Notes: generated from the letters alone by a model not told the origin. A stretch of DNA of 64,000 bases from an uncultured Chloroflexia bacterium (GCA_963720505.1 CAVRFT010000006.1:451781-515780), one strand, 5' to 3'; positions 11,315 through 61,917 are shown, counted from the first letter of the stretch. A program made the numbers and translations.

Positions 11315-11341
11315 CGGGCGCAGTGTGGCAGACTCCGACCC

Positions 11342-12823: not shown

Positions 12824-12849
12824 CCTAGCGGTTGGCGGGCAGTGGCACA

Positions 12850-13757: not shown

Positions 13758-13772
13758 GAGCCCATCGGTCCG

Positions 13773-15078: not shown

Positions 15079-15099
15079 GGACCGATGGTAGCGGCCGGA

Positions 15100-34184: not shown

Positions 34185-34261
<77 letters not shown>

Positions 34262-44865: not shown

Positions 44866-44900
44866 CGTCCCGCCCGGCGCCGGCACGCGGCGCTCGGTGA

Positions 44901-46673: not shown

Positions 46674-46711
46674 CGGCGGCTCAGGCCTGGGTTTTGTGGG
46701 CGGTCAGGAGA

Positions 46712-47353
46712 TCAGGCGGCGGGCGGGCTGTAGCCCAGCTCCTCCAGCTTGGCGAGCACCTTCGCTGCCGACTCCTCTGGCGTCTCGCGGCCGTCGGAAT
46801 GACACACGACTTCGGGGTTGAGCGGCGCCTCGTAGGGATCGTCAACGCCCGTGAAGCCCTTGATCTCGCCCGCCATCGCCTTCTTGTAGAGGCCCTTCAC
46901 GTCGCGGTCGGCCAGGACCTGGACCGGTGCCTCCACGTAAACCTCGACGAAGCGGCCGATGTTGCCCCGGACCTGGTCTCGGATGTCGCGATACGGGCTG
47001 ATGGCTGCCGCAATGGCAACCACGTCGTTGCGCGACAGGACCTCGCACACCCAACCGATACGAAGGATGTTGGTGTCGCGGTCCTCCTTGCTGAAGCCAA
47101 GGCCCTTCGACAGGTGCTGCCGCACGGCGTCGCCGTCGAGAACCTCGACCTTGTGGCCGCGTTCCCGTAGCTCCAGCTCCAGGATGTGGGCGATGGTGCT
47201 CTTGCCCGAGCCGGAGAGGCCCGTGAACCAGAGGGTGAAGCCCGTGGTCTCGCGGTCCTGGCGCGTACCGGCGCCTCCGCCGAGGTGGATGGTCTGGCCG
47301 TGGCGGTCGGTGCTCGTGGTCAGGTCGGGCGTCGGGCGATCCGTTTGTGTCAT
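46712..47353 (-). CDS. cysC: adenylyl-sulfate (APS) kinase
   Basis: It reads [22 protein letters not shown]...[31 protein letters not shown]...[25 protein letters not shown]. Confidence 0.9.
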
Positions 47354-47376
47354 GGGTCCTTCTCTCTTGTGAGGTT

Positions 47377-48564
47377 CTAGCGCGCCGCTGCGGGCGCGCG
47401 GTAAGCGTCAATCAGGATCTTCGCCACTTCCGGCCGGCTGAACTCCTGGGGCGGCATCTCGCCGGACGACAGGAGCTCGCGAACCTTGGTGCCGGAGAGG
47501 ATCAGGTGCTGGTCATCACCGTGCGGGCAGGTCTTGTAGGAGGCCATGCCCTCGCAGGCGTTGCACCAGAAGGTGTGCTCGAAGAAGAGCGGGGTGATGC
47601 CCAGCTCATCGGGCTCGAACTCGTCGAAGATCTTCTGCGCGTCGTAGGTGCCGTAGTAGCTGCCGACGCCGGCATGGTCGCGTCCCACGATGAAGTGGGT
47701 GCAGCCGTAGTTCTTGCGCGCGATGGCGTGGAAGATCGCCTCGCGCGGGCCGCCGTAGCGCATGGCCGCCGGGTATACGCTCAGCAGCGTGCGGTCCGAC
47801 GGGTAGTAGTCGGCCAGCAGCGTCTCGTAGGCGCGCATGCGGACGTCGGCCGGGATGTCATCCGACTTGGTGTCGCCCACCAGCGGATGGATCATCAGGC
47901 CATCGGTGACCTCCAGCGCGACCTTGGTCAGGTACTCATGGGCCCGATGGATGGGGTTGCGCGTCTGGAAGCCGACCACTCGGCGCCAGCCCTTCTCGGC
48001 GAAGATGGCGCGCGTATCGGCCGGCGCGCGGCGATAGGCGGCAAAGGGCGGATCGGCCGGCCCGTTCAGGACGGTGACCTCGCCGCCCAGGTAGACCTCG
48101 CCGGCGGCGTGGATGCGCGCCACACCGGGGTGCGCATCCTCGGTGGTGCGGAAGACCTGCTCCGCCTCGTGCTGTGCGTCATAGGTGTACTTCTCGGCCA
48201 GCGCCAGGATGCCCAGCAGGCGGCCGCTCTCGTCGCGCAGGGCGACTTCGCTGCCGATCTGCAGCGCGTCCGCCTCCTCGCGGCCGATGGCCAGGGTGAT
48301 GGGAATCGACCAGGGCAGGCCGTTGGCCAGGCGCATGCTGTCGACCACCGAGCGGTAGTCGGCCTCACCCATGAAGCCGGTCAGGGGGCTGAAGGCGCCG
48401 TTGCCGATCAGCTCCAGGTCGGAGGCGGCGACGGATCCGATGGTGATGGAAGGAAGGGCGTTGGCGCGCTCGATGGCGCTCTCGCGCTCCGCTCCGGTGG
48501 GGGCGCGGTCGATGAGGACGCCGCCGTGCGGCGTCGAAGTAGCAGATGTCAAGTCAAGCTCCAT
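47377..48564 (-). CDS. sat: sulfate adenylyltransferase (ATP sulfurylase, Sat type)
   Basis: The internal ATG at 48564 of ORF 47377..48609 gives [20 protein letters not shown]. Motifs are [29 protein letters not shown] and [15 protein letters not shown]. Confidence 0.9.
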
Positions 48565-48759
48565 GTGGCGCCGACGCGGGCAGGCAGCATTCGGGATGGG
48601 GGGCCGCATCGGGTCGGGTTCCGTATCGTAGCGCCTGAGACCCCCTTCCCGCCACCCAGCACCAAGGTCATGGCCCGTGCAGGGACGATTCGAGTTGCCC
48701 GGCTACAATCCTGCGGCGCCAACACGGTCGGCGCGACGCACACGCACGAGGAGAACCGG

Positions 48760-49767
48760 TTGTCGATCGCGGCTGAACGAGGGAGCAGCATTGGTGACGT
48801 TGTGGAGGCGCTCCGCGCCGCCAAGCGGGTGAGCGCGGTCTGCCACGAGAACCCCGATGCCGACACCATCGGTGCGGCAGTCGCCGTCTGCATCATCGCC
48901 GAGCGGCTGGGCGCCGAGGCCGAGATCGTCAGCGCCGACGGCATCCCACCCATGTTCGCCTTCCTGCCCCATGTGGCGCAGGTGGTGCGCAAGCCGCACC
49001 TGGAGCCGGATCTCGCCGTCTTCTGCGACGCCGCCACGCTGGAGCGAGTCGGCCGTATCGCCACCGAGGAGGCGGACTGGTTCTCGCGGGCAACCGTGCT
49101 GAACATCGACCATCACATCAGCAGCAACTACTTCGGTGACCTCAACCTGGTGGACCCCAAGGCCGCCGCCACGTGCGAGGTCGTGGCACGGGTGGTGGAT
49201 GCGCTGGAGATCGAGCTGGACGAGGAGCTGGCAACGGCCCTCATGGTGGGGATCGTGCGCGACAGCCAGGGCTTCTCCGACATGGCCACGTCGGGCGACA
49301 CGTTGCGCGCCGCGGCGCGCCTGGTCGATGCGGGCGCCCCGTTGGCGCTCATCCATCGCCGGATCCTGTCAGAGCTGCCGTTCGCGACCATCGCCCTGTG
49401 GGGCAAGATGCTGGCCGGCGTGGGGTCCGAGGCAGACGACCGGATCGTGCACACCACGCTCATGTTGTCGATGCTCGACGAGACCGGGACCGAGCAGCAC
49501 GACGCCGACGGGCTGGCCGAGTTTCTGGCCAAGGCAAAGGGCGCCGACGTGACCCTGCTGCTGCGGGAGCTGGGCCCCGACGAGACACGCGTGAGCGTCC
49601 GCACCTCGGATGCCGTCGACGCCACGGCCATCACGTCCCGTTTCGGCGGCGGCGGCCACGTGCGGCGTGGAGGCTGCACAGTCCGCAGCCATGCCACCGA
49701 GGCCCTGAGCCTGGTGCTGGACGCCAGCCGCGCCGCCTTGGACGGGCCACCGGCAGCGGACGGCTGA
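48760..49767 (+). CDS. nrnA: DHH/DHHA1 phosphoesterase, NrnA-type (oligoribonuclease / 3'-phosphoadenosine-5'-phosphate phosphatase)
   Basis: A TTG at 48760 follows GAGGAG; it is in frame with the 3' third of the 806-aa ORF 47347..49767. Motifs are CHENPDADTIGAA, FCDAAT, NIDHHISS, GIVRDSQGF and FGGGGH. The 5' two-thirds of that ORF is antisense to sat and is rejected. Confidence 0.8.
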   Translation: MSIAAERGSSIGDVVEALRAAKRVSAVCHENPDADTIGAAVAVCIIAERLGAEAEIVSADGIPPMFAFLPHVAQVVRKPHLEPDLAVFCDAATLERVGRIATEEADWFSRATVLNIDHHISSNYFGDLNLVDPKAAATCEVVARVVDALEIELDEELATALMVGIVRDSQGFSDMATSGDTLRAAARLVDAGAPLALIHRRILSELPFATIALWGKMLAGVGSEADDRIVHTTLMLSMLDETGTEQHDADGLAEFLAKAKGADVTLLLRELGPDETRVSVRTSDAVDATAITSRFGGGGHVRRGGCTVRSHATEALSLVLDASRAALDGPPAADG

Positions 49768-49792
49768 CCGTTCCGGGCCTGGATCGCCGGCC

Positions 49793-51223
49793 TTGACCGC
49801 AGAGCTCGCGACTCCTTCCGTCGACGCGCAGCCGCTCCCGCACGCCGGAGTGCGCTGGTGGCACGAGGCGCTGATCCTGGGATCGGTCATGGTCACGCTC
49901 CTGCTGCTGGGGCTCTGGCAGCTGGGTGATCTCAGTCTCTGGCGGGACGAGGTGGCGAGCGTCGTCTTCGCCAAGGGCTCGCTGGGGGACCTGCTGACCA
50001 TCATCGGCCGCGACCGCAATGCGGTGGGACTGGCCAACATGGCGACCTACTACCTGCTGCTCCACTTCTGGCTCCTGGTCGGCGAGACCGAGGCCCGCAT
50101 CCGGCTGCTGTCGGTGCTGTTCGGGGTGGCCAGCGTGGTGCCGGTCTACTTCATCGCCCGCCGGCTGGGCGGCTGGCTGGCGGCGGCCCTGGCGGCCGGC
50201 ATCTTCGCCCTGATCCCGTACGTCATCCACTACAGCCAGGAGGCGCGTGGCTACTCGCTGGCGATGCTGATCGGCGGGGCCCTGACCTGGCTGGTGCTGA
50301 TCGGGGTCGAGCGCGGCCGTGGCGCCTGGTGGCCGTGGCTGGCGTATGGGCTGATCGCGGCGCTGGGGCTGTACGTCCACTTCTTCGTGGCGCTGGTGGT
50401 GGCCGCCCACGGGCTGTGGCTGCTGGCCACTCGCCAGGTGCCGGGCTGGCGCGGCATCGCGGCCGGCGGCATCCCCCTGCTGCTGGCGGCCGCGCCGATC
50501 CCGCTGATCATCGTCCAGTTCGGCGGGGAACAGGAGTGGATCCCGCCGCTGACGCTGTCACAGGCAGCCGGCGCGATCACCGATCTGGCGGGAGGGCTGC
50601 CGCTGCTGCTGGCGCTGACCGCACTGGGCGTGGTGGCCGTGGTGGCGCGACCGCGCGACGCCGGCATCTGGCTGATGCTGGCGTGCATCGTCATCCCGAT
50701 CGTGGGGGCGGCGGCGATCTCGCTGGTGAAGCCAATGTTCGTTGGGCGCTACCTGATCATCGTGCTGCCGTTCGTGGCGGTCCTGGCTGCCTGCGCCCTC
50801 GTGGCGCTGCCGCGGCCCTGGATGCGTGGCGCGGCGGCCGTGGCGGTGGCCGGCCTGCTGCTGCTGGCCGTTCCGAGCGCCTATGCCGACACGCACCAGC
50901 AGGACTGGCGAACCGCCGGCCCGTGGATGGCAAGCCGGGTCCAGGCGGGAGATCGAATGATCGCCGGCAATGGCCAGCGGTCGATCAACTACTACCTGCG
51001 GCAGGCAGGCGCGAAGGTCATGCCGCCCAACACGACGGCCGGCGACGCGCTGACCGAGCCTCCCGCCGGCAGGGTCTGGCTGGTGATGACCCAGAGCGCG
51101 GCCAGCAGCTCGTTGCGCGAGCGCCTGGCGGCGGGCTACGACGTGGTCGATGAGCACGAATTCGGCGACCACCTGGCGGTGGTGCTGCTGGAACCGCGCG
51201 ACACCCCGCCTGCGTCTGGCTGA
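49793..51223 (+). CDS. GT39 / ArnT-PMT-like GT-C membrane glycosyltransferase, copy A
   Basis: 476-aa ORF. It has LWRDEVASVVFAKG (DE motif after TM1), IRLLSVLFGVASVVPVYFIARRLGG, HYSQEARGYSLAM, and more than 10 TM segments. Confidence 0.8.
   Translation: MTAELATPSVDAQPLPHAGVRWWHEALILGSVMVTLLLLGLWQLGDLSLWRDEVASVVFAKGSLGDLLTIIGRDRNAVGLANMATYYLLLHFWLLVGETEARIRLLSVLFGVASVVPVYFIARRLGGWLAAALAAGIFALIPYVIHYSQEARGYSLAMLIGGALTWLVLIGVERGRGAWWPWLAYGLIAALGLYVHFFVALVVAAHGLWLLATRQVPGWRGIAAGGIPLLLAAAPIPLIIVQFGGEQEWIPPLTLSQAAGAITDLAGGLPLLLALTALGVVAVVARPRDAGIWLMLACIVIPIVGAAAISLVKPMFVGRYLIIVLPFVAVLAACALVALPRPWMRGAAAVAVAGLLLLAVPSAYADTHQQDWRTAGPWMASRVQAGDRMIAGNGQRSINYYLRQAGAKVMPPNTTAGDALTEPPAGRVWLVMTQSAASSSLRERLAAGYDVVDEHEFGDHLAVVLLEPRDTPPASG
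49958..50529 (+). repeat. 572-bp segment identical to 51411..51982 (inside GT39 copy A)
   Basis: A base-by-base comparison of the two stretches shows no mismatch. Flanks diverge immediately (g vs c at the 5' edge, a vs g at the 3' edge). Confidence 0.95.
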
Positions 51224-51233
51224 CGAAGGACCA

Positions 51234-52703
51234 ATGGAGAGCCAGCGTCCCATGTCCCGCGCCTGGCTGGCCGGGCGGATCAGCGAGGAGCATCGCGCGA
51301 ACCTGCTGAGCTGGCTGCCCTGGCTGGGACTGGTGCTGCCGATGGTGGCCCTGCTGGTGCTTGCGCTGCAGGACCTCGGCAAGCCGAGCCTGTGGCGCGA
51401 TGAAGTCTCCAGCGTCGTCTTCGCCAAGGGCTCGCTGGGGGACCTGCTGACCATCATCGGCCGCGACCGCAATGCGGTGGGACTGGCCAACATGGCGACC
51501 TACTACCTGCTGCTCCACTTCTGGCTCCTGGTCGGCGAGACCGAGGCCCGCATCCGGCTGCTGTCGGTGCTGTTCGGGGTGGCCAGCGTGGTGCCGGTCT
51601 ACTTCATCGCCCGCCGGCTGGGCGGCTGGCTGGCGGCGGCCCTGGCGGCCGGCATCTTCGCCCTGATCCCGTACGTCATCCACTACAGCCAGGAGGCGCG
51701 TGGCTACTCGCTGGCGATGCTGATCGGCGGGGCCCTGACCTGGCTGGTGCTGATCGGGGTCGAGCGCGGCCGTGGCGCCTGGTGGCCGTGGCTGGCGTAT
51801 GGGCTGATCGCGGCGCTGGGGCTGTACGTCCACTTCTTCGTGGCGCTGGTGGTGGCCGCCCACGGGCTGTGGCTGCTGGCCACTCGCCAGGTGCCGGGCT
51901 GGCGCGGCATCGCGGCCGGCGGCATCCCCCTGCTGCTGGCGGCCGCGCCGATCCCGCTGATCATCGTCCAGTTCGGCGGGGAGCACGGTTGGATTCCACC
52001 CTTCAATCTGCCGCGCTTCTATGGCGCCGTCGTCGAGCTGACCGGCAGCCTCTGGCTGCTCATCGGCCTGACCGCCCTGCTGGTGGTCGCCGCCGTGCTG
52101 CGTCGCCGCGATCCCCGTGTCTGGCTGCTGGTCGCCAGCGTCCTGCTGCCGATCGCGGTGGTGGCGGTCGTGTCCCTGTTCAAACCGTTCTTCGTCCCCC
52201 GCTACGTGATCATGGTGCTGCCCATGCTGGCGGTGCTGGCGAGCGTGGCGCTGGTGGCGGTGCGTCCCGTCCTGCTGCGAGCCGTCCTGATCGGGGCACT
52301 GGCGGTAGCGCTGGTGGTTGCGCTGCCGTCCGCCTACTGGAGCGCGACCAACATCAACTGGCGGGGGGCCGGCCGCTGGATGGCCGAGGAGGGGCGGCCG
52401 GGCGATCGGGTGTGGATGCAGTCGTGGTTCGGGTCGCCGCTCCAGTACTACCTCCATCGCGCCGGTCCCACCACCGAGCTCGACAAGGTCAGCTTCGACG
52501 AAGCCCTCTTCGACGCACGGGACCGGGTCTGGCTGGCGGTGACCGGGAAGCGCCAGGGCGAGATCCACGACATCGTGCTGCTCTTCGAGAATCGCTACCA
52601 GGTGGTCGATGCGCGCTCGCTGGGCGGCCGCGGGCGCCTGTTCCTGCTCGAGCCAATCGACGACGGCACGGCCGCTCGTTCGTCGCCGGTCGGGCGGCTT
52701 TGA
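51234..52703 (+). CDS. GT39 / ArnT-PMT-like GT-C membrane glycosyltransferase, copy B
   Basis: The ATG at 51234 (MESQRPMSRAW...) lies within ORF 51150..52703, 11 nt after the copy A stop. It has the same family motifs. The N-terminal ~55 aa and the C-terminal ~240 aa are clearly diverged from copy A. Confidence 0.8.
   Translation: MESQRPMSRAWLAGRISEEHRANLLSWLPWLGLVLPMVALLVLALQDLGKPSLWRDEVSSVVFAKGSLGDLLTIIGRDRNAVGLANMATYYLLLHFWLLVGETEARIRLLSVLFGVASVVPVYFIARRLGGWLAAALAAGIFALIPYVIHYSQEARGYSLAMLIGGALTWLVLIGVERGRGAWWPWLAYGLIAALGLYVHFFVALVVAAHGLWLLATRQVPGWRGIAAGGIPLLLAAAPIPLIIVQFGGEHGWIPPFNLPRFYGAVVELTGSLWLLIGLTALLVVAAVLRRRDPRVWLLVASVLLPIAVVAVVSLFKPFFVPRYVIMVLPMLAVLASVALVAVRPVLLRAVLIGALAVALVVALPSAYWSATNINWRGAGRWMAEEGRPGDRVWMQSWFGSPLQYYLHRAGPTTELDKVSFDEALFDARDRVWLAVTGKRQGEIHDIVLLFENRYQVVDARSLGGRGRLFLLEPIDDGTAARSSPVGRL
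51411..51982 (+). repeat. 572-bp segment identical to 49958..50529 (inside GT39 copy B)
   Basis: See the partner feature. The offset is 1453 bp, as a direct repeat. Confidence 0.95.
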
Positions 52704-52740
52704 TACCATCCCGCGGTTCCAGCCAGCCCGGGAGGATCAG

Positions 52741-54327
52741 GTGAGGCCACCGAGCCACGCCGAGACCGAACTGCGGCGGCACCGAAATCCGAGTGCTCGG
52801 GCGCTGCTCCGATCCCTGCTCCGACCATCACGCTTCGCGGTGGTCGGCATCATCGGCATTGGCGTCAATACCGCCGCCCTTGTCTTCGGCACCGAAGTCA
52901 TGGGCATGCACTACGCGGTGTCGGCGATCGTCGCCTCGCAGGTCTCGACGCTCAGCAACTTCGTCCTGACCGAGCTCTGGGTCTTCCGGGGGCGGGAGGC
53001 ACGCCACCACATCGTGGTGCGCTACCTGACCTTCAACGCCCTGAACGTGGCGACGCTGGTGGTGCGCGTGCCGCTGCTGGTGCTCATCACGGAATGGATC
53101 GGCCTGCACTACCTGGTGTCGAGCCTGATCGCCATCGGCGTGACCTTCGGCATTCGCTACTTCATCGCCGACAACTGGATCTGGGCGGGACGCGACGCGC
53201 GCGATCAGTCGGCGGCTGACGGCTGGTTCCACTACGACATCCACGGCCTGGCCCGGCTGAGCTCGCGGATCGCCCTGCCGGAGCTCGCGGCCTTCAACAC
53301 CCCGCACCCCGTTGAGGCGGACATCGTCATCGCCCGGCGCTTCGGTCTGGGTGGCCTGCCGCGGCTGCGCGTCAGCATCGGCTCCGAGGACGGCGTCATC
53401 CGCTACCGGGAGCAGTTGGGCGCGGCCGGCGTCGCCTTCGACGTCCACCTGGAACCGCACATCCGGATCGAGCCGAACTGGCTGCTGGCCTGGTCGCACC
53501 ATGTCCTGTACACGAACGTGGTGGAGCCGCTCCTCCGCTTCCTGCTGGTCAGCCGCGGGGTGGTGCTGCTGCACTGCGCGTCGGTCGACACCGAGCGGGG
53601 CGCACTGCTCATGTCGGCCCAGACCGATACCGGCAAGACGAGCACCCTGCTGCGACTGCTGATGCATCGGTCATGGGGGTTCATGGGCGATGACATGGCC
53701 ATCGTCCGGCCGGACGGGCAGGTCCTTTCCTATCCGAAGCCGATGACCCTGTCGCTGCACACCATGAGCGCCGTCAACGAGTCGGCACTGCCCTTCGCCG
53801 ATCGGTTCATGCTCGCCATCCGCAGCCGCGTGCATTCCAAGCAGAGTCGAACGATCGGCCATGCGCTGGGCCGCTGGCCGGTGCCCATCGTCACCATCAA
53901 CTCGGTGGTCCAGCTGCTGGTGCCGCCGCCCAAGTACCACGTCACCTCGCTGCTGGACTGCGACCTGGTGGACGAGTCGCCGCTCGATGGCGTGCTGCTG
54001 ATGGAACGCGGACAGCCGGTGATCGAGGACGTGGCGCTCGAGCCGGCGCTGGACGAGCTGCTGGCCAACACGGAGGACGCCTACACCTTCCCGCCGTTCG
54101 GCTGGTTCGCGCCGTACCTCGCCTTCGACGGGCTGGACGTCGATGCCCTGCGCGCTCGCGAGCGCGATCTGCTGCGCTCCGCCGTGGCGCGTGGCTGGCG
54201 GACCCGGCTGCGCGTGGTCGGCCACGAATGGGCGGAGGTGATTCCCACCCTGCTGGACGGTCGGGCGAGCGCGCGTCAGCCGTCGGCCAGTCCCGCACCG
54301 GCCGGCGTGGGTAGCGCCCTCAGCTGA
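52741..54327 (+). CDS. fusion protein: N-terminal GtrA-like 4-TM domain plus a C-terminal P-loop domain resembling HPr-kinase-related kinases
   Basis: A GTG at 52741 lies 6 nt after GGAGG. The GtrA-like part is RFAVVGIIGIGVNTAALVFGTEVMGMHYAVSAIVASQVSTLSNFVLTELWVFRG...IGVTFGIRYFIADNWIWAG. The C-terminal part is VVLLHCASVDTERGALLMSAQTDTGKTSTLLRLLMHRSWGFMGDDMAIVRPDG. This has Walker A AxxxxGKT followed by DD, the HprK-like layout. Confidence 0.7.
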   Translation: MRPPSHAETELRRHRNPSARALLRSLLRPSRFAVVGIIGIGVNTAALVFGTEVMGMHYAVSAIVASQVSTLSNFVLTELWVFRGREARHHIVVRYLTFNALNVATLVVRVPLLVLITEWIGLHYLVSSLIAIGVTFGIRYFIADNWIWAGRDARDQSAADGWFHYDIHGLARLSSRIALPELAAFNTPHPVEADIVIARRFGLGGLPRLRVSIGSEDGVIRYREQLGAAGVAFDVHLEPHIRIEPNWLLAWSHHVLYTNVVEPLLRFLLVSRGVVLLHCASVDTERGALLMSAQTDTGKTSTLLRLLMHRSWGFMGDDMAIVRPDGQVLSYPKPMTLSLHTMSAVNESALPFADRFMLAIRSRVHSKQSRTIGHALGRWPVPIVTINSVVQLLVPPPKYHVTSLLDCDLVDESPLDGVLLMERGQPVIEDVALEPALDELLANTEDAYTFPPFGWFAPYLAFDGLDVDALRARERDLLRSAVARGWRTRLRVVGHEWAEVIPTLLDGRASARQPSASPAPAGVGSALS

Positions 54328-54410
54328 CCGGCCCCGACCGGAGTTTGCCCTGCAGCCTGTACTTCTTACCCATGGCAGCAGAGCGTGAGTCATTCCATGC
54401 TGGCCCGGTC

Positions 54411-56162
54411 ATGACGCGTCGCGCCCGATCCACGCTGCTCCTCGCATTGGCCCTGACGGCCTGGACCGTCGCCCCTGCCGTTCGCCCGGCGCCCGCCGCG
54501 GCGGCCGGCGTGACCCTCTACGTCGACGGCAAGCACGGGAGCGACAGCAACGGCGGACGATCGTGGGGCGACGCCTACAAGACCATCAACTACGCCGCGC
54601 GCCGCGTGCCGAATGGCATGGCCGCGGCCGGCTGGACGGTGGTGGTCCGCGGCTACACCGACTACATCTATCGCGAGCGCCCGGTGCCGGGCAACTACGA
54701 CCGCGCCGGCACGGCCGGCGCGCCGGTCGTCTTCATGGCCGATGGGTGGTCGCCGGCCGGGACCGACTACGTCAAGCCGATCGTGTCGGGCGCCCAGGTC
54801 GCCCCCCACTCGGGCAATTCCTGGACGCCCGATGCCACCAACGGCGTGTGGTCCACGGCGTGGAGCTCTGCCCCGTCCGGTTTTGATCGCTTCAAGCCCT
54901 ATTCGAGCGCCATCTTCCAGAACCGAATTGGCTTCCTGTGGCAGCACGCCAGCCTGGCCGATCTGCGTAACCGGGCTGGCACCGGCGCCGGCGGCTACTG
55001 GTGGGACGATGGCGCGAACCGCCTGTACGTGGCCACCCGCAACGGCGTCGCGCCCGGATCGGTGACGATCGAGGTGCCCACCTACATGGGCTTCTACTTC
55101 ACCGGCGTGGCCGGCTCGCGGTACGTCTCGGTGCGGGGCTTCGTGGTGCAGCACACGTCGATGGGGATCACCTTCCACCAGGGCGCCGACCACAGCTCGG
55201 CCTGGGACAACACGGCAGTCGGCAACACGCCCATGGCCTTCGGCACTTCGGGCCGCGCGACGGCGTCCGGCTTCGATGCCGCAGTGGGCAACGAGTTCCT
55301 GCGCAACAGCGCCGCATACAGCACCCTCCAGGGATTCAAGGTGGACGCCGGCTCGCAGGACACGGTCATCTGCGGCAACACGGTGAGCCACAACGCGCTG
55401 CAGGGGATCAAGGTCCAGGGGCCCAACAACAGCGGCGACCATCGCGCCACCTATGGCACCGAGGTCTGCCGCAACACGTTGGCCTCGCAGAACGTGCAGC
55501 GCCCCGGACCCGAGCGCGCTGACGAGCGTCCCAACGGGCTGACCCTGACCAATGGCGCGCGCGGCACGAACGTGCATGACAACGTGATCCGCGGCAACAC
55601 CATTGGCGTGCAGGTCAACCAGGGCGGCATCGGCTCGCCGATTTCGAACACCGTGTTCAAGCACAACCAGGTGTTCGGCAATACGGGCGCCGGCCTGAAC
55701 CTGCGCGACGGCGTTGCGTCCGCCCACTCCGGCACGGGGCTGATGACCTTCTCGTTCAACCTGTACTGGGACAACCAGTACGGCATCCGGGTCAACGAGG
55801 GCAGCACCAACAAGGTGTTCCGCCACGAGACCGTCTACGCCAACCGGACCGCCGGCATCTTCATCGGCTGCGATTGCCCGTCGTCCCGGGCCGAGGTGGA
55901 CCTGCAGGAGAGCCTGGTCTCGCACAACGGCGGGTACGGCATCCGCATCGCGCCCGGCCAGACGGTGCGCCTGAAGTACGTGGGCGTCCCGTCGAACAAG
56001 AGTGGCGGCGTGCTGGGACCGGCCACCAAGTACCGGATGAACAGCAGGCCGGCGGGTTACCTCTCCCGCACCCCCGGCAGCAGCCAGTTCGTGCGGATCG
56101 CCTCCGTTTCGTACCAGTACACCGCCGGCCCGAGCGCCAGCCCCATCGGCGCGCGTTACTGA
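54411..56162 (+). CDS. secreted right-handed parallel beta-helix repeat protein (pectate-lyase fold)
   Basis: The ATG at 54411 gives MTRRARSTLLLALALTAWTVAPAVRPAPAAAAG (signal). This is followed by LYVDGKHGSDSNGGRSWGDAYKTINYAARRV. PbH1-type repeats follow (HNALQGIKVQG, GNTIGVQVNQG, GNTGAGLNLRDG, DNQYGIRVNEG, NRTAGIFIG, HNGGYGIRIAPG). Confidence 0.8.
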   Translation: MTRRARSTLLLALALTAWTVAPAVRPAPAAAAGVTLYVDGKHGSDSNGGRSWGDAYKTINYAARRVPNGMAAAGWTVVVRGYTDYIYRERPVPGNYDRAGTAGAPVVFMADGWSPAGTDYVKPIVSGAQVAPHSGNSWTPDATNGVWSTAWSSAPSGFDRFKPYSSAIFQNRIGFLWQHASLADLRNRAGTGAGGYWWDDGANRLYVATRNGVAPGSVTIEVPTYMGFYFTGVAGSRYVSVRGFVVQHTSMGITFHQGADHSSAWDNTAVGNTPMAFGTSGRATASGFDAAVGNEFLRNSAAYSTLQGFKVDAGSQDTVICGNTVSHNALQGIKVQGPNNSGDHRATYGTEVCRNTLASQNVQRPGPERADERPNGLTLTNGARGTNVHDNVIRGNTIGVQVNQGGIGSPISNTVFKHNQVFGNTGAGLNLRDGVASAHSGTGLMTFSFNLYWDNQYGIRVNEGSTNKVFRHETVYANRTAGIFIGCDCPSSRAEVDLQESLVSHNGGYGIRIAPGQTVRLKYVGVPSNKSGGVLGPATKYRMNSRPAGYLSRTPGSSQFVRIASVSYQYTAGPSASPIGARY

Positions 56163-57067
56163 GCCGATCCCTCCGCCGGTAGCCAGGCCGGCAGCTCGCG
56201 CCCCAGCATTTCTTCCAGCTCGCGGTTCGCACCCGCCATGTCCCGACGCAGGCGCTCGGCAGCCTCGCCCGTCAGCGCGTCGCGTGCGGCGGCCTCCGTG
56301 TTCAGGTTGACCGCGGAGCGGTAGAGCCGGCGCCGCATGCCCTGCGGGGCCACGCGGCGTGCCGCCTTGCGCAGCCACTCCGGCGGATCGTTGAGGGCTC
56401 GACGCAGCACCATGTTGCGCGAGCGCTTGCTGGCGTTCACCACCGCGAAGTCCGGCTGGTGGTCCGGATCGACGCCCAGGAAGGCCAGCGTGTCGCGGTA
56501 GGACCCCGCGGTATCGGCCCTGAAGTCGTCGTACACGATGACGTGCACCCGCTCACGGCCGAATCGGTCCAGGTAGCGCCCCAGCTGCGGGGCGTACGTC
56601 GCCACGCGCCGGTAGAGCAGGCCGCGTGGGAAGTTCGCGTGTTCCGGGATGCGGCGGCCCGCCGCGCGATCCTCCTCCGCGGCGAGCGCATCGGCCAGTC
56701 CGAGGTCTTCGTGGCCGTTGTAGACGAACTGGCTGTGCAGCGAGGGGATCATCTCGACCGGGTCTCGCAGCATGACGATGATCCGGGCGTCGGGCACCGC
56801 CTGGCCGATCTCGTCGGCGGCGCACTCCGAGTACAGGTACCAGACCGATGCCTCCCCGATGCGGCGCCGGTCGCCGGCGCCCGCGAAGTAGGACCGATAT
56901 TGCGCGTCGCTGGGGCGGCGCCGGTAGCGGAAGTCCAGGTCTGAGCCGAAGTAGTGCGGCTCCTTCGGATCGGACATGAACACGTCCGGGTGCTGGGACA
57001 GGTAGGCGTGCAGCGCGGTGGTGCCGCACTTTGGCGCTCCCACGATGAAGAAGTTGGGCAGCGTCAT
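56156..57067 (-). CDS. PAPS-dependent sulfotransferase (Sulfotransfer_1/3-like), ST1
   Basis: 303-aa ORF. The 5'-PSB loop is NFFIVGAPKCGTTALHAYL. The 3'-PB region is IIVMLRDPVEMIPSLHSQ. Confidence 0.85.
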   Translation of the reverse strand: MTLPNFFIVGAPKCGTTALHAYLSQHPDVFMSDPKEPHYFGSDLDFRYRRRPSDAQYRSYFAGAGDRRRIGEASVWYLYSECAADEIGQAVPDARIIVMLRDPVEMIPSLHSQFVYNGHEDLGLADALAAEEDRAAGRRIPEHANFPRGLLYRRVATYAPQLGRYLDRFGRERVHVIVYDDFRADTAGSYRDTLAFLGVDPDHQPDFAVVNASKRSRNMVLRRALNDPPEWLRKAARRVAPQGMRRRLYRSAVNLNTEAAARDALTGEAAERLRRDMAGANRELEEMLGRELPAWLPAEGSAQ

Positions 57068-57975
57068 GTGGGGGGCTCCTGCAGCCAGAAGCCGAGGTCG
57101 CGCCCGACCATGGCACTGAGCCGCTCGACCTCGGGACGGAGGTCCTCGACCAGGCTGGCGCGCAGTCCCGGGTCCATGGTCGCGCGTTCCTGGGGGCGAG
57201 CGTTCAGCCGCGTGGCGGTGCGGTAGATACCCTTGCGCGTGTTCTTGGGCAGGATGCGGCGGGCGGTGCCGCGCACCCAGCCGGGCGGGCTGGCCATCAG
57301 GCGCTGCGCCAGGCGGCTGCGGCTCGCCTTGGCCGGGTTCTTGACCTCCAGCCGCGGCCGGAAGGCCTCGTCCACGCCCAGGAAGCGGAAGGTCGCGGCC
57401 ACCGATGCGGCGGTATCGGCCTTGAAGTCGTCGAAGACGATGATGTGCATCCGCTCGCGGCCGAGCGCGGCGTCGTAGCGGACCAGCTGCTCCGAGTAAT
57501 TGACGGCCTCGCGATAGAGCAGGCCGCGGGGGTTGTTGATGGCCTTGGGGATGCGGCGGCCCTCGCGCCGGTCAGGCTCCGCGGCCAGCGCCTCGCCGAA
57601 GTCGGTGATCTCCTCCAGCCCCAGGAAGACGAGCTCCGAGTGCAGAGCCTGCATCACCTCCAGCGGGTTGCGCAGCATGACGATCGCCTGCGCCTCCGGC
57701 GCGAACGCGGCGATCTCCTGGGCGGCCAGCGTGGAGCGCAGGTAGCTGACCGATGCCTCGCCCACCCGCCCGCCGGCCGGCGCGGAGGCGAAGTTGGCCA
57801 GGTACTCGTCCAGCGTCATCCGCGAGGAGTGCCGTGATGGGCGGTCGCTGCCGAAGTAGTTCAGCTCCTTGATGGCGGGCATGAAGACCGCCGGATGCTG
57901 GCGCAGGTAGTCATGCATCGAGGTCGTGCCGGACTTGGCGGCGCCGACGATGAAGAAGTCCGGGCGACGCGTCAT
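57064..57975 (-). CDS. PAPS-dependent sulfotransferase (Sulfotransfer_1/3-like), ST2
   Basis: 303-aa ORF. It has DFFIVGAAKSGTTSMHDYL and IVMLRNPLEVMQALHSE. There is a 4-nt ATGA overlap with ST1. Confidence 0.85.
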   Translation of the reverse strand: MTRRPDFFIVGAAKSGTTSMHDYLRQHPAVFMPAIKELNYFGSDRPSRHSSRMTLDEYLANFASAPAGGRVGEASVSYLRSTLAAQEIAAFAPEAQAIVMLRNPLEVMQALHSELVFLGLEEITDFGEALAAEPDRREGRRIPKAINNPRGLLYREAVNYSEQLVRYDAALGRERMHIIVFDDFKADTAASVAATFRFLGVDEAFRPRLEVKNPAKASRSRLAQRLMASPPGWVRGTARRILPKNTRKGIYRTATRLNARPQERATMDPGLRASLVEDLRPEVERLSAMVGRDLGFWLQEPPT

Positions 57976-59141
57976 CGGCCCGATGCTACCCCGGCATCGC
58001 CGCGGCCGCCGTTGGGGCCGATCACCGCGTCGAGCAGGTCGGCGTACTGCCGGATGGCGGTCTCGGGGGCGAAGGCTTCCGAACGCTGTCGGGCGCCCTC
58101 GCGCAGGCGCGCCGCCAGGGCGGGATCGGTCAGGATGCGCAGGATGGCGTCGGCCAGCGCGACCGGGTCGCGGGTCGGCACCAGCAGGCCGCTGCGCTCC
58201 GGCTCGATGATCTCGTTCGGACCGAACTCGGAGTCGGTGGCGACCGCCGCCGCGCCGACGCGCATGGCCTCGACCAGCACGAAGGGAAATGCCTCCCAGT
58301 CGGAGGCGAGCACGAACGCGTCGGCCCGCCGCATGGCCGGGAAGGGGTTCGGCGCGTAGCCGGGCAGCTGGACCGCATCGCCCAGCCCCAGCTCGGTGAT
58401 GCGTGCCTCCAGGGCGGCGCGCTCCTCGCCCTCGCCCAGGATCAGCAGCCGCGCCGGCGCCTGCTCGCGCACGCGGCGCAGCGCCTCCAGCAGGACCGGA
58501 TATGCCTTCTGGGGCGTCAGGCGGCCGACGGCCACCAGGGTCGGGCCGGGACCCGCGAACCAGGCTGCCGGCGGCTCCTCCGCCGCCAGGCGGTCGACCT
58601 CCGGGTCGAACGGGTTGTAGATGGTCGTCATGCGGTCGGCGGGCAGGCCCAGCTCGCGGGCCATCGCGTCACGCAGGCCATTCGAGACCGGCACCACCGC
58701 GGCAGCGCGGCGATAGGCGCGGGCCGCCAGGCCCAGCTGCAGCCGCTTGCCGCCGCTGGCCCGCAGGGCGTCGGGTGTGACGTGCTCGGTGGCGATCACC
58801 GGCGTGCGGGTGCCGGCCATGCGGGCGGCGGCCACCAGCAGGAGGTTCTGGTAGGTCATGAAGCCGATGGCCGCCGCCGGCCGCCGGCCGCGCAGCTCTC
58901 CCACCAGGCGCCGCAGCGTGCGCGGCAGGTCGTAGCGGGACCGCTTGTCGAGTGATCGGATCGGCACCGCCGCGGGAAGCTCGCGCGCGAAGTCCGGGTT
59001 CTCGTCGCGGCGATGCAGCACCACGATCTCGACCGCGAAGCGCTCGGGGTCCAGGCCGCGCGCCAGGATGCTGACCAGCCGCTCCATGCCGCCCAGTCGA
59101 ATGGACGGCAGCAGGAACAGGACGCGCTGCGGCCCGCTCAC
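57972..59141 (-). CDS. GT4-family (GT-B) glycosyltransferase
   Basis: A GTG at 59141 gives VSGPQRVLFLLPSIRLGGMERLV. The C-terminus is LVAVGRLTPQKAYPVLLEAL...ASDWEAFPFVLVEAMRVGAAAVATD (EX7E region). There are 4-nt overlaps at both ends (GTGA with ST3, ATGA-type with ST2). Confidence 0.85.
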   Translation of the reverse strand: MSGPQRVLFLLPSIRLGGMERLVSILARGLDPERFAVEIVVLHRRDENPDFARELPAAVPIRSLDKRSRYDLPRTLRRLVGELRGRRPAAAIGFMTYQNLLLVAAARMAGTRTPVIATEHVTPDALRASGGKRLQLGLAARAYRRAAAVVPVSNGLRDAMARELGLPADRMTTIYNPFDPEVDRLAAEEPPAAWFAGPGPTLVAVGRLTPQKAYPVLLEALRRVREQAPARLLILGEGEERAALEARITELGLGDAVQLPGYAPNPFPAMRRADAFVLASDWEAFPFVLVEAMRVGAAAVATDSEFGPNEIIEPERSGLLVPTRDPVALADAILRILTDPALAARLREGARQRSEAFAPETAIRQYADLLDAVIGPNGGRGDAGVASGR

Positions 59142-60048
59142 GGATCGGCGCGCCAGGCCGCCAGCGACCGTCCCAGCAGCCGCTCGAGTCGGCTGACATC
59201 GGGCTCGAGCTCGGCACGCAGCCGGTCGCGCAGCCCGGCGGGCATGGCGGAGCGCTCCGGGTTGGCGGCGTTCAGGTCGACCGCGCGGCGGTAGGCGGCG
59301 CGCCGCGCGCCGGCCGGGACGAGGGTGCGGATGAGCACGGCGCAGGGCCGGCGGCGGATCGGCCAGGAACCGCCGCATGCCGGCCGACCGGGCGCGCTTG
59401 TTCGGGTTGGCGTGCGGGAAGGCGAGCTGCCGGCTGCGCCGACAGGCCAAGGAAACGGACCACGGCGGCGCCGGTGCCCTCCGGATCGGCGATCAGGTCG
59501 TCGAACAGCAGGACGTGGACCCGATCCGCTCCGAAGCGCTCGAGATAGCGCTCGACCTGCTCCGCGTAGCGGACCGTGGCCCGATAGCAGAGGCCGGCCG
59601 GAAAGTGGGCGTCGCCGGGTATGCGCCGGCCGGCGCATCGGTCCGGCTCCGCCTCCAGCGCTGCCGTGAAGTCGGCGATGTCCTCGTTGCCGTCGTAGAC
59701 GAACTCCGAATGCAGGGCGTACAGCGCCGCCACCGGGTCGCGCAGCGCGATCACGATCCGCGCATCCGGCCGCACCTCCGCGATCTCGCGCGCCGCCTCC
59801 CGGCTGTAGAGGTACCAGACGTACGCCAGGCCGCGGGTCGAGCCGGCCGGGGCTGAGCCATACAGCTCGGGCAGGTCGTCGGCGGTCCAGCGCCGCCGAT
59901 TGCGCACGTCCAGGTCCGAGCCGAAGAGCAGGAGCTCCTTCCGGTCGGGCAGGAAGACGTCCGGATGAGCGGCCAGGTATTCGTAGAGCGAGGTGGTGCC
60001 GGCCTTCGGTGCGCCGACGATGTAGAAGTCGGGCCAGGCGGCCGTCAT
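59138..60048 (-). CDS. PAPS-dependent sulfotransferase (Sulfotransfer_1/3-like), ST3; at least two apparent frameshifts (about 59450 and 59330)
   Basis: ORF 59272..60048 has DFYIVGAPKAGTTSLYEYL and IVIALRDPVAALYALHSE. The C-terminal third is spread over two other frames (FPHANPNKRARSAGMRRFLADPPP; LIRTLVPAGARRAAYRRAVDLNAANPERSAMPAGLRDRLRAELEPDVSRLERLLGRSL). It is collinear with ST1/ST2. Confidence 0.75.
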
Positions 60049-60151
60049 GCGCAGGCGATGCCGAGTTCGGGACGTCTCGTCACACTGGCTCCATGGCGAG
60101 GTGCTGGGCGGCGATTATAGGAAGGATGCCGATCCGCGAGCGGGAGAGCCG

Positions 60152-61177
60152 ATGTCGATAGCGCTGGTGATGACGGTCCGCGACGAGGTGGAGTTCCTGC
60201 GCCAGAACCTGCTCTACCACCGGTTTCTGGGCGCGGAGGCGGTGTACGTCTACGACGACGGCTCGACCGATGGCACTCCCGACAGCGTCGTCGACCTGCC
60301 GTTCGTGCGAGTCGCGCCCACCGTCTCGCCCGATGAACTGCCGCCGGAAGACCGCACCGACGCATCGGCGGATGAGCCGGAGCGCTACGTCACCTCTCGC
60401 CAGAACATGAACACCATCGATGCCATGCGCCGCGCCCGCGCCGATGGGATGACCTGGCTTTTGGCGATCGATGCGGATGAGCTGGCCACCGTCAGCCTGG
60501 ACGCCACCGCACCCGGCGCGCTGGCGGCGGCCTTCGATGGCGTCCCGGATGCCGTGGAGCAGGTGGTCCTGCGCCCACTCGAGATCGTCCAGCGGCGGGT
60601 CGACTTCGACGATGTGATGGCGCAGGAGACCCTCTTCAAGCGCGCCGACGTGGGGCTGGAGCACAAGACATTCGACCCGTTCACCAGCACCACCCACATG
60701 GTCCGGGGCGTCTACGGCCACACGCTCGGCAAGGGCGCGGCGCGCCTGTCGGCCGACCTGCGACCCGCCACGGTCCACCGCTTCCGGCGGCGGGGCGGGG
60801 CGCGGGCGAGATCAACCGACCTGGGCTGGCTGCTGCATTACTACTGCCACACCTTCGAGGCGTTCGTGCGCAAGTTCCGCCTCTTCCGCGATCACCCGGA
60901 CATCCACCTGCGCGGCCACGAGGTGCAGCTGCAAAAACGGCTATGGCGAGACGTGGTCAACCGCTCGGGGATGAGCGACGAGGAGCTGCGGGACTACTTC
61001 GAGCGCTGGGTGCAGTTCGACGATGAGGAGATCGCTCGGCTGCGCCACCGCCGTCGCTTCGGCGTCCTGCCACAGGCGCCGGCGATCGTGGAGGTGACCG
61101 CCGCGCGGGATGCGTTCGCGCAGATGCGCTCGGAAGCGCAAGGCGCTCAGGCGCCGGAGTCGGCCACGGGACGCTGA
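60152..61177 (+). CDS. GT-A fold glycosyltransferase (GT2 / GT92-like)
   Basis: The ATG at 60152 gives MSIALVMTVRDEVEFLRQNLLYHRFLGAEAVYVYDDGSTDGT. A DxD-like LAIDADE follows. It is divergent from the ST3 operon. Confidence 0.7.
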   Translation: MSIALVMTVRDEVEFLRQNLLYHRFLGAEAVYVYDDGSTDGTPDSVVDLPFVRVAPTVSPDELPPEDRTDASADEPERYVTSRQNMNTIDAMRRARADGMTWLLAIDADELATVSLDATAPGALAAAFDGVPDAVEQVVLRPLEIVQRRVDFDDVMAQETLFKRADVGLEHKTFDPFTSTTHMVRGVYGHTLGKGAARLSADLRPATVHRFRRRGGARARSTDLGWLLHYYCHTFEAFVRKFRLFRDHPDIHLRGHEVQLQKRLWRDVVNRSGMSDEELRDYFERWVQFDDEEIARLRHRRRFGVLPQAPAIVEVTAARDAFAQMRSEAQGAQAPESATGR

Positions 61178-61917
61178 GGTCGCTTGGCGACATAGTCGGC
61201 GAAGCGGAAGTACTTCCAGTAGATGCCGCGGTAGAAGCGAGCGATCCGCATCGCCACCCGCGACCAGGCTGGCGTCCGCACGCGGCCCCACTCCTCCGGG
61301 AAGGCGTAGTCCCAGTCGTCCATGTACGGTCCGAAGACCCACACCGCGCGCTTGACCGCCTCGGGCGTGTAGTAGCTGACGAAGTCGCGCTCCCGTCCCG
61401 GCGTCTTGTTGACCACGGGCAAGGGCCGCTTGGGCTCCAGCCCGATCCGCCGCAGCGCCTCCTCGAAGTCCTCGGGCAGGTGCTCGAAGCGCAGCACCAT
61501 GTCGATGCTGCCATGGTCGAGGCTGGTCCAGGTGTCGTACGGCACCACGTACCAACGCTTCAGGAACTGCTCGAAGGTGGCGTCGGTGCGCTGGATCCAC
61601 GAGTAGATGCGCCGCTCGATCTTGCTGGCCAGCGAATTCCGAACCTTGACCGACCACGTATCGGTGAAATGGTCCTTCACGTTGCCCTTGAGGTGGACGT
61701 AGCGGGTGACCGCCACGTCGAGCGGGTTGCGGATGCCGGAAAAGACGAAGTAGGTCTTCTCATCCTCGGTCGCCTGCCGCAGGAAGTCGCGGTACGTGGC
61801 GTGCTTGCGCAGGATGTGCTCCCCGCCGTACATCTCCTGCAGCTCCTTGCGCACGGCCGATGAGCCGGTGCGCGGAACCTCGACGTACACGTACCGGTGC
61901 TCGTGGTTGATGATCAT
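61147..61917 (-). CDS. Sulfotransfer_2-family (carbohydrate sulfotransferase-type) protein, ST4
   Basis: The ATG at 61917 gives MIINHEHRYVYVEVPRTGSSAVRKEL (5'-PSB-like). FVFSGIRNPLDVAVTRY is 3'-PB-like. It lies in the same open frame as the C-terminus of the upstream GT4 (ORF 61147..62274 has no intervening stop). Confidence 0.8.
   Translation of the reverse strand: MIINHEHRYVYVEVPRTGSSAVRKELQEMYGGEHILRKHATYRDFLRQATEDEKTYFVFSGIRNPLDVAVTRYVHLKGNVKDHFTDTWSVKVRNSLASKIERRIYSWIQRTDATFEQFLKRWYVVPYDTWTSLDHGSIDMVLRFEHLPEDFEEALRRIGLEPKRPLPVVNKTPGRERDFVSYYTPEAVKRAVWVFGPYMDDWDYAFPEEWGRVRTPAWSRVAMRIARFYRGIYWKYFRFADYVAKRPQRPVADSGA

Follow-up and report, generated by a model that had tools for sequence, protein, structure and literature searches.

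A PEPCK/HprK-superfamily domain joined to a DPMS-type membrane bundle as a candidate fourth component of lipid-linked glycosylation in uncultured soil bacteria

Introduction

How polyprenyl-phosphate-linked sugars cross the membrane, and what energises or alters them in passing, if anything does, are among the least understood points in the building of bacterial surfaces. A gene that bears on these steps lies at 52741-54327 of a 64,000-nucleotide stretch of DNA from an uncultured Chloroflexia bacterium (GCA_963720505.1 CAVRFT010000006.1:451781-515780; the whole stretch is called the window here, and positions are counted from its first letter). The gene, GtrA-X, encodes a four-helix membrane domain of the GtrA family followed by a soluble domain that we call X. 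What is a kinase-type domain doing on such a bundle? The best explanation is that X serves extracytoplasmic glycosylation from lipid-linked sugars as a conserved fourth component, present here in fused form. As judged from sequence and structural models, X is a catalytically intact member of the superfamily of phosphoenolpyruvate carboxykinase (PEPCK) and HPr kinase/phosphorylase (HprK/P), with a phospho-acceptor different from that of PEPCK.

Three-component extracytoplasmic glycosylation has been described for GtrA/GtrB/Gtr-type GT-C, CsbB/GtcA/YfhO and ArnC/ArnEF/ArnT (PMC11127046, PMC7389260). There, as in the loci reported here, a family 2 glycosyltransferase (GT2) acting as polyprenyl-phosphate-sugar synthase, a small GtrA-family membrane protein and a glycosyltransferase of the GT-C type are encoded together. 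The loci with X differ in having the kinase-type domain placed after the GtrA-type bundle and before the GT-C enzyme, often together with genes for a secreted phosphoesterase and GH99/71-like proteins, whereas the three-component systems as described include no X-like fourth component (PMC11127046, PMC7389260). The X module is a Gtr-type three-component pathway with a kinase-type fourth component. A domain that its sequence predicts to be catalytically intact is thereby added to this poorly understood step, fused to bundle, synthase and GT-C in hundreds of species of soil phyla that are abundant yet uncultured; a conserved PEPCK-like domain in this place is unexpected for specialists in bacterial glycoconjugate biosynthesis.

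Results and discussion

GtrA-X is a single gene

Translation yields one open reading frame (ORF) of 528 codons that carries LHCASV, GALLMSAQTDTGKTSTLLRLL and GFMGDDMAIV, as an earlier reading of the sequence (the first-pass annotation) had reported. A mechanical ORF list gave a longer frame starting at ATG 52609. We place the start at GTG 52741 because GGGAGGA precedes it by 4 bases (5 when counted from the GGAGG core), because the PMT_2 gene upstream stops at 52703 and because the N-termini of homologues match. The GC content by codon position (0.69/0.48/0.89 for GC1/GC2/GC3, in a genome of roughly 70% GC) follows the pattern of a real gene. Among 5.8 billion proteins searched, 1,176 were related to the 528-residue protein; the best 120 of these are nearly all full length, 60–91% identical and derived from many independent assemblies. 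Since the junction between the two domains is invariant in a 58-sequence alignment (A1; Table 1) and full-length homologues occur independently, the fusion is real, in frame and under selection.

The first-pass annotation had allowed that the frame might be two genes joined by an assembly indel, and a pseudo-enzyme remnant with no catalytic role would be a further form of artefact. The window does contain at least one probable indel frameshift (serA, 40855-42457), some related loci in metagenome-assembled genomes (MAGs) from long reads have split genes, and certain lineages encode the membrane domain and X separately. Against this, more than 100 clusters that stem from separate assemblies, and dozens of species genomes, contain this fusion joined in frame at an invariant junction, the catalytic-type residues are all intact in the window copy and the codon-position GC is typical of coding sequence. 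An artefact, whether of assembly joining or of an over-long ORF, is effectively ruled out by the independent full-length homologues, the conserved junction and the evidence on ribosome-binding site and start, and we give it next to no probability. GtrA-X is one gene, with its junction kept across independent assemblies.

Domain X has a PEPCK-like fold

Modelled by itself from 22 diverse relatives, X has a two-lobed fold, predicted with high confidence (predicted local distance difference test, pLDDT, 91.1; predicted template modelling score, pTM, 0.90). When the model was compared with the Protein Data Bank (PDB) by Foldseek, PEPCK took all of the first 31 places, the ATP-dependent form accounting for 30 (E = 2.6e-7 to 1e-4; 343–430 columns, mostly ~390; query-normalised template modelling score, TM, 0.37–0.52). 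HprK/P came next (1kkl; E = 2e-4, probability 1.0, TM 0.52 when target-normalised). The model of the full-length protein (pLDDT 81.6, pTM 0.75, with a linker below 50) matched PEPCK, dolichol-phosphate mannose synthase (DPMS; membrane part) and HprK/P. The structure search thus assigns the soluble part to the P-loop phosphotransferases of the PEPCK/HprK superfamily. The first-pass annotation had described the C-terminal domain as HprK-like; at the level of the superfamily this holds, by Foldseek and by sub-threshold matches to HprK_rel_A and Hpr_kinase_C, but the closest relative in structure and motifs is ATP-dependent PEPCK and HprK/P is second.

ATP-dependent PEPCK (PckA of E. coli; 1j3b of Thermus thermophilus) is the best structural match over the whole of X, is likewise two-lobed and aligns with X in a series of motifs. 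An hhalign comparison of the X profile with the single E. coli PckA sequence (E = 3e-4, probability 39.6%) pairs, at that probability, H278/H232, K299/K254, T300/T255, D317/D268, D318/D269 and K333/K288, within the motif pairs LLHCA/MHCSA, DTGKT/GTGKT, GDD/GDD and YPKP/CYAK, and further on PPPKYH/SYPIYH and EDAYTFPP/ADAFGVLPP. The six PckA residues (H232, K254, T255, D268, D269 and K288, E. coli numbering) serve metal binding and phosphoryl transfer. Their putative counterparts in X, namely the His, the P-loop Lys and Thr, the Asp-Asp pair and the Lys, are invariant in a diverse alignment of relatives 30–50% identical (A2) and intact in the window copy. The Walker A sequence of the family is itself atypical (consensus A-x-[TP]-D-T-G-K-T), with an invariant Ala for the first Gly and the invariant D296 within the loop.

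R65, Y207, K212/K213 and R333 of PckA form the oxaloacetate/CO2 site, and this site is not kept in X: the hhalign alignment begins at PckA residue 218, past Y207–K213. The WSHHVLYTNVVEPLLR segment of X occupies the place of the substrate-binding Y207/K212/K213, yet cannot be aligned to those residues, and the invariant, family-specific motif SHHVLYTNVVEP replaces the oxaloacetate/CO2-binding segment. X also differs from PEPCK in its size (~350 amino acids versus 540) and in sequence (~10–13% identity). No Pfam family matches domain X, and no Pfam PEPCK match was found in the window protein or the 22 relatives. A true PEPCK that supplies phosphoenolpyruvate to the glycan pathway was considered and is ruled out by the unconserved oxaloacetate-site segment and the missing PEPCK profile match. 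Because X is membrane-tethered and lies in glycan operons, its phospho-acceptor must differ from that of PEPCK.

The only sequence-profile matches of X are to HprK-type families, all of them below threshold. NCBIfam TIGR04352 (HprK_rel_A) matched residues 273-343 at E = 1.6e-7 with 30.8 bits against a cut-off of 200, and TIGR04249 (ScmC) reached 17 bits against 125; PF27840 gave matches graded 'weak' or 'faint' on relatives. Pfam PF07475 (Hpr_kinase_C; gathering threshold 33.3 bits) did not match the window protein, and sub-threshold matches appeared in 6 of the 22 diverse relatives (best E = 1.1e-6). X thus misses the thresholds of the curated HprK, HprK_rel_A, ScmC and PEPCK families and stands outside them, but in their superfamily.

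Could X nevertheless be an HprK-type Ser/Thr kinase-phosphorylase of proteins or peptides, which regulates the GT2 or GT-C enzyme, or primes an acceptor protein, according to the energy or phosphate state? The core of X does have the spacing of HPr kinase/phosphorylase and the HprK-related kinases (PF07475, TIGR04352, TIGR04249/PF27840), with a His, ~15 residues, GK[ST], another ~15 residues and Asp-Asp. Its nearest sequence families, HprK-related kinase A and ScmC, are both associated with peptide modification, the Hpr_kinase_C matches in relatives and the Foldseek probability of 1.0 against HprK/P point the same way, and PMT-type enzymes, from what is known of the family, act on Ser/Thr. The profile matches, however, fall far below their cut-offs, and the fold of the whole domain, with its extra motifs, fits PEPCK better than HprK. 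Unlike the HprK types, X has ~170 extra C-terminal residues with PEPCK-like motifs and, in Walker A, Ala for the first Gly and an Asp in the loop. The setting differs too. No gene for HPr, which HprK/P phosphorylates at Ser46 under control by FBP and Pi, was found beside any locus examined, nor any conserved gene for a candidate substrate protein or peptide in these loci, and very high conservation over 350 amino acids with obligate colinearity would suit a pathway enzyme better than a regulator. We regard a role of this kind as distinctly unlikely.

The membrane domain is of the DPMS type

Residues 31-148 match Pfam PF04138 (GtrA_DPMS_TM) over the entire profile (positions 1-117 of 117; 74.7 bits versus a cut-off of 26.1, E = 9e-21), and the AlphaFold2 (AF2) model places helices at 31-53, 58-81, 91-120 and 124-148. 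Arg and Lys are distributed as 7 in the N-terminal tail, 0 in loop 1, 3 in loop 2, 0 in loop 3 and 2 in the segment past helix 4; the two outer loops, both very short, have none and the inner loop has all three. By the positive-inside rule both ends of the bundle and the C-terminal domain are therefore cytoplasmic.

The only PDB sequence match of this domain is the type-III DPMS of Pyrococcus furiosus (PfDPMS; 5mlz, E = 7e-10; a second structure is 9ep0), with ~29% identity over 120 residues and the same four-helix topology. In PfDPMS a polar pocket of Asn (transmembrane helix 1), Asn (helix 2) and Arg (helix 4) with a gating Phe binds the headgroup of dolichyl-phosphate-mannose (Dol-P-Man) "upside-down"; the pocket holds the product headgroup, sugar and phosphate, and is dispensable for catalysis on dolichyl phosphate (Dol-P) (PMC12992685). 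All four residues are kept in the window protein (N43/N248, N73/N277, F136/F338 and R139/R341), and among 126 X-associated membrane domains of distant relatives N43 is conserved in 126, N73 in 123, F136 in 91 and R139 in 126. The pocket motifs are missing from classical GtrA proteins, and type-III DPMS has been defined as archaeal only (PMC12992685), whereas the present protein is bacterial. The "typical four-helix GtrA module" of the first-pass annotation is therefore right as to the four helices and the PF04138 match and wrong as to "typical": judged by its sequence, the module is a DPMS-type bundle for lipid-phosphate(-sugar) headgroups, which is more specific. The window protein is not itself a DPMS, because no GT2 domain is present in its 528 residues, and X stands on the C-terminal side of the bundle; relatives of the form GT2-bundle-X resemble a DPMS with an added domain.

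A bundle of the PfDPMS type has been proposed as a translocator of Dol-P-Man (PMC12992685), and in the same vein the first-pass annotation had suggested that the fusion could serve flipping. X would then be an ATPase whose activity drives or gates transport of the polyprenyl-phosphate-sugar by the attached bundle; the protein would in effect be a primary-active flippase, and the energy question for GtrA-type proteins would be answered. The placing of X about ten residues past helix 4, behind an invariant interfacial motif, would suit such a machine, as would the pTM of the full-length model and the adjacent GT-C consumers. On the other hand, the characterised members of the PEPCK/HprK superfamily are, as far as is established, all phosphotransferases with no motor ATPase among them, and the invariant set of His, Asp-Asp and Lys is typical of transfer to a substrate. 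Often, too, X stands alone as a soluble protein or is joined to GT2 without a bundle, and the linker in the model has low confidence. On balance we find X as a flippase motor quite unlikely.

Fusions and gene order tie X to polyprenyl-phosphate-sugar metabolism

The fusion had been called unusual, which it is not: X gave 974 matches at E ≤ 1e-3 (136 at E ≤ 1e-30) among 1.84 billion representatives at 50% identity, and at least 552 X loci turned up when each GTDB species was represented by one genome. Counts of gene order below are drawn from 80 of these species-genome loci, all from MAGs and mainly from Limnocylindria (the clade of the window) and other Chloroflexota, Dormibacterota and Actinomycetota; architectures are drawn from 149 representatives. 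GtrA-X accounts for 26 of the 149, GT2-GtrA-X for 23, GT2-X for 11, GtrA-X-PMT_2 for 3 and the 1,310-residue GT2-GtrA-X-PMT_2 for 1, while X-GtrA and GT2-X-GtrA are rare and the 76 cases of X alone include many fragments. The long fusions recur on several independent contigs. Homologues are named in their sources only "putative flippase GtrA", "dolichol-phosphate mannosyltransferase" or "hypothetical protein", and a literature search found no description of the X domain or of the GtrA-X fusion. The architecture is common in uncultured soil phyla, yet uncharacterised and with no family model of its own, so that only the first half of the first-pass annotation's reservation, that it might already be common and characterised, applies. 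Family X merits its own profile, which would end the labels "flippase GtrA" and "dolichol-phosphate mannosyltransferase".

Four X copies come from contigs assigned by binning to Steroidobacteraceae or Proteobacteria (L007 and L008, with X 69–73% identical to that of the window, and L040 and L058, 48–51%); all other matches belong to Chloroflexota, Dormibacterota or Actinomycetota. These four copies are probably due to mis-binning, or possibly to horizontal transfer. One Dormibacterota MAG, DATKSR01, has two separate GT2, GtrA, X and PMT loci (L071, L084), which shows that one genome can have paralogous copies of the module.

GT2, GtrA, X and PMT_2 are colinear on one strand across the 80 loci, fused or split in every way, and at 8 loci they are four separate genes. 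A colinear GT2 is present in 37 of the 80, and the best matches of this partner are the polyprenyl-phosphate-sugar synthases PgfS, ArnC, AglJ and PpgS. The first hidden Markov model (HMM) for PMT_2 was too narrow, and 29 Limnocylindria loci appeared orphan under it; by tblastn with the 722-residue PMT_2 of L089 and by hydropathy, many of the Limnocylindria loci have a divergent PMT_2 of ~720 residues directly upstream. In at least 50 of the 80, a neighbouring gene on the same strand encodes a protein with 7 membrane helices or more. Together the domain fusions and the conserved gene order strongly back the link of GtrA-X to polyprenyl-phosphate-sugar metabolism that the first-pass annotation had drawn.

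The block extends further downstream. Single-linkage clustering of neighbour ORFs merged into two giant components, owing to fusion proteins and to antisense shadow ORFs at high GC, and Pfam-annotated contigs were used instead. In four distant members (L085–L088) these show the operon GT2-GtrA, X, PMT, phosphoesterase PF04185, an unknown protein and a GH99/GH71-like protein; its first part is partial in L087, where no GT2 is called upstream of GtrA-X, and in L086, where a GT2-X protein has no membrane domain. The PF04185 phosphoesterase occurs in 30 of the 80 loci and GH99/71-like genes in 34. The phosphoesterases of X loci have signal peptides, with PC-PLC and AcpA as best matches. In a reciprocal search of metagenomes from this phosphoesterase subfamily, the 22 closest loci (≥43% identity) included 7 with X upstream: four have the complete GT2-GtrA-X-PMT block (L095, L102, L105 and L109) and three, each truncated by a contig end (L096, L097 and L104), have part of X. 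At one further locus, L103, ~2.4 kb of upstream sequence contained neither X nor PMT_2, and homologues below 40% identity had no GT2, GtrA, X or PMT genes alongside. None of the downstream members, that is the PF04185 subfamily, the family-less secreted protein and the GH99/GH71-like proteins, is characterised.

The pairing of a kinase with a secreted phosphoesterase would also fit a cycle between polyprenol and polyprenyl phosphate, in which X is a polyprenol kinase that rephosphorylates bundle-held undecaprenol or decaprenol, feeding GT2 and other pathways, after a secreted PLC/AcpA-like enzyme has freed polyprenol outside. The GT2-X fusions that have no membrane domain would then join two consecutive steps on one lipid, the invariant R139 would be the phosphate-binding Arg of the pocket, and it would be understandable that in Limnocylindria the gene, set among housekeeping genes, behaves as part of the conserved core. 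If so, this would be a third, unrelated route to carrier-lipid recycling. In established pathways, however, the carrier that GT-C transfer sets free is polyprenyl phosphate rather than the alcohol, so that the stoichiometry calls for no kinase. Undecaprenol and dolichol kinases known so far are integral-membrane enzymes with no relation to X, which would make X novel but without precedent, and the PfDPMS pocket binds the product headgroup and can be spared for catalysis on Dol-P (PMC12992685). We consider a polyprenol kinase unlikely.

A lipid-linked sugar as the possible phospho-acceptor

From sequence and models we infer that GtrA-X is a membrane-anchored, cytoplasm-facing, ATP-dependent phosphotransferase. 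Tentatively, its phospho-acceptor may be a lipid-linked sugar (a polyprenyl-phosphate-sugar). X would use ATP to phosphorylate the polyprenyl-phosphate-sugar held by the bundle at the inner membrane face; the phosphorylated lipid-sugar would then be translocated, neighbouring GT-C enzymes would pass the phosphosugar to a surface glycan or protein, and the secreted phosphoesterases would later trim or remodel that phosphate. A lipid-linked sugar was chosen as substrate because (i) the tethering bundle is of a kind that in PfDPMS binds the product sugar-phosphate headgroup and is dispensable for catalysis on Dol-P, (ii) a dedicated secreted phosphoesterase implies that phosphate reaches the outside and (iii) modification of lipid-linked sugars before export has precedent in ArnD and in DprE1/E2. 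The ArnD deformylase modifies a lipid-linked sugar before export. In the decaprenyl-phosphoribose pathway, a phosphatase step and the DprE1/E2 epimerase steps take place on the lipid-linked sugar (PMC11127046).

Several observations weigh against a lipid-linked-sugar kinase. Some Limnocylindria GtrA-X genes sit among the housekeeping genes miaB, miaA and hflX, where a general role for the carrier lipid fits at least as well, and neither a GT2 synthase of the module type nor a PF04185 phosphoesterase was detected in the 64-kb window by the module HMMs. The window protein lies below every curated kinase-family threshold in Pfam and NCBIfam, and hhalign gives the pairing of X with PckA a probability of only 40%. 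Sequence queries of the PDB with X, as the single sequence, a 22-member profile or a 92-residue core, returned chance matches only (a cytochrome c555 trimer, TrwB and a methyltransferase), and for this reason the superfamily assignment rests on Foldseek, hhalign with PckA and the sub-threshold profiles. The phospho-acceptor is purely our inference. Finally, we know of no kinase-made phosphorylated polyprenyl-phosphate-hexose intermediate, and a literature search found none either.

If X does phosphorylate lipid-linked sugars, a new class of lipid-linked intermediates would follow and probably a new anionic wall polymer. GT-C enzymes could build phosphosugar- or phosphodiester-linked, teichoic-acid-like extracellular polymers in Chloroflexota, Dormibacterota and Actinomycetota, with the secreted phosphoesterase and the GH99/71-like enzymes as the remodelling arm of that pathway. 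The bolder joint claim, that X is either the first primary-active ATP-dependent polyprenyl-phosphate-sugar flippase with a PEPCK-like domain or the founder of a class of lipid-linked-sugar kinases, is in our judgement unlikely; on either version X would fill a gap for GtrA-type translocators, which have until now had no partner for energy coupling or chemical modification. What probability the readings above leave over is assigned to chemistry outside them.

The locus in the window

The features of GtrA-X and of its surroundings are collected in Table 1.

Table 1. Features of GtrA-X, neighbouring genes in the window and the downstream block of related loci
Feature	Position	Strand	Evidence or remark
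GtrA-X gene, 528 aa + stop	52741-54327	+	Translation; full-length homologues 60–91% identical
Ribosome-binding site GGGAGGA	52730-52736	+	Direct sequence reading
Basic cytoplasmic N-terminal tail, residues 1-30, 7 Arg/Lys	52741-52830	+	Lys + Arg counts, positive-inside rule
Four-helix GtrA/DPMS-type membrane domain, residues 31-148	52831-53184	+	Pfam PF04138
Junction motif NWIWAGRD, residues 145-152, membrane-cytoplasm interface	53173-53196	+	W146–D152 invariant, alignment A1
Domain X, predicted cytoplasmic PEPCK/HprK-superfamily P-loop domain, residues 159-512	53215-54276	+	AF2, Foldseek, hhalign
Motif WSHHVLYTNVVEPLLR, residues 251-266; invariant S252, V255, Y257, N259, E262, R266	53491-53538	+	Alignment A2
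LLHCAS, invariant H278	53566-53583	+	A1, A2; paired with PckA MHCSAN, H232
P-loop SAQTDTGKTST, residues 292-302; invariant A293, D296, T297, G298, K299, T300	53614-53646	+	A1, A2; paired with PckA GLSGTGKTT
GDDMA, invariant D317/D318	53686-53700	+	A1, A2; paired with PckA IGDDEH, D268/D269
YPKPMTLSLHT; invariant P332, K333, T336, H340	53731-53763	+	A2; K333 paired with PckA K288
IRSRVHSKQSR; invariant H365, S366, R370; basic helix particular to family X	53818-53850	+	A2
PPPKYH; invariant P396, P397, K398	53923-53940	+	A2; paired with PckA SYPIYH
NTEDAYTFPPF; invariant A447, F450, P451, P452	54067-54099	+	A2; paired with PckA LTADAFGVLPPV
Priming transferase (Bac_transf)	43456-44865
CitMHS/sulfate-type transporter	44901-46673	-
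APS kinase	46712-47353	-
ATP sulfurylase	47377-48609	-
NrnA-like DHH phosphatase, likely PAP phosphatase	ending 49767	+
PMT_2-family GT-C, first copy	49793-51223	+	Pfam PF13231, E = 7e-11
PMT_2-family GT-C, second copy, ends 37 bases before GtrA-X	51150-52703	+	Pfam PF13231, E = 8e-11
Secreted right-handed beta-helix protein, 17 bases downstream of GtrA-X	54345-56162	+	Pfam Beta_helix and NosD; signal-like N-terminus MTRRARSTLLLALALTAWTVAPA
Sulfotransferases, three clear	56156-57067, 57064-57975, 59272-60048
GT4 glycosyltransferase	57972-59450
GT2 glycosyltransferase	60047-61177
Sulfotransferase, weak match	61147-62274
PF04185 phosphoesterase, family-less secreted protein and GH99/GH71-like stretch in related loci	L085 7605-12048; L086 5084-8831; L087 11643-16413; L088 4005-8523		Also in L095, L102, L105, L109

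The region 43456-62274 is a probable sulfated-glycan biosynthesis locus that encloses GtrA-X, and the same locus was found in relatives L001–L003 (74% identical); in the literature searched, sulfated polysaccharide loci of soil Chloroflexota appear to be undescribed. Within it the module is a reduced form, made up of two PMT_2 genes, GtrA-X and the beta-helix protein, and if X acts on lipid-linked sugars it would supply a further anionic decoration. The first PMT_2 copy also gave sub-threshold matches to the mannosyltransferase NF052499 and to the archaeosortase-associated oligosaccharyltransferase TIGR04154. The beta-helix gene holds the same position in L001–L003, and a beta-helix gene lies downstream in L088.

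A calcineurin-like (Metallophos) phosphoesterase at 42489-43370 (+) adjoins the priming transferase and resembles the Metallophos domain that is fused to one GH99/GH71-like protein, that of L087; by these two cases phosphoesterases recur around the X module. The 806-residue ORF at 47347-49767 (+) is over-extended, its first ~420 codons being antisense to ATP sulfurylase. The true start of the DHH phosphatase is probably near 48760-48830, because only residues ~481-788 match DHH/DHHA1.

In a Limnocylindria MAG (L089), 10209-15683, beside the orthologue of GtrA-X, contains an HTH_17/PIN pair, which is toxin-antitoxin-like, and a HamA and DEAD-helicase pair resembling Hachiman defence. Elsewhere in the window, serA (D-3-phosphoglycerate dehydrogenase) is split at 40855-42457 (-) into an ORF with the N-terminal and NAD domains (41711-42457) and a second that comprises the intervening and ACT domains and what is left of the NAD domain (40855-41745), most likely by a frameshift from a long-read assembly indel. 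The sole RNA gene in the window by Rfam and ARAGORN is a tRNA-Pro (CGG) at 34185-34261 (-), far from the GtrA-X locus.

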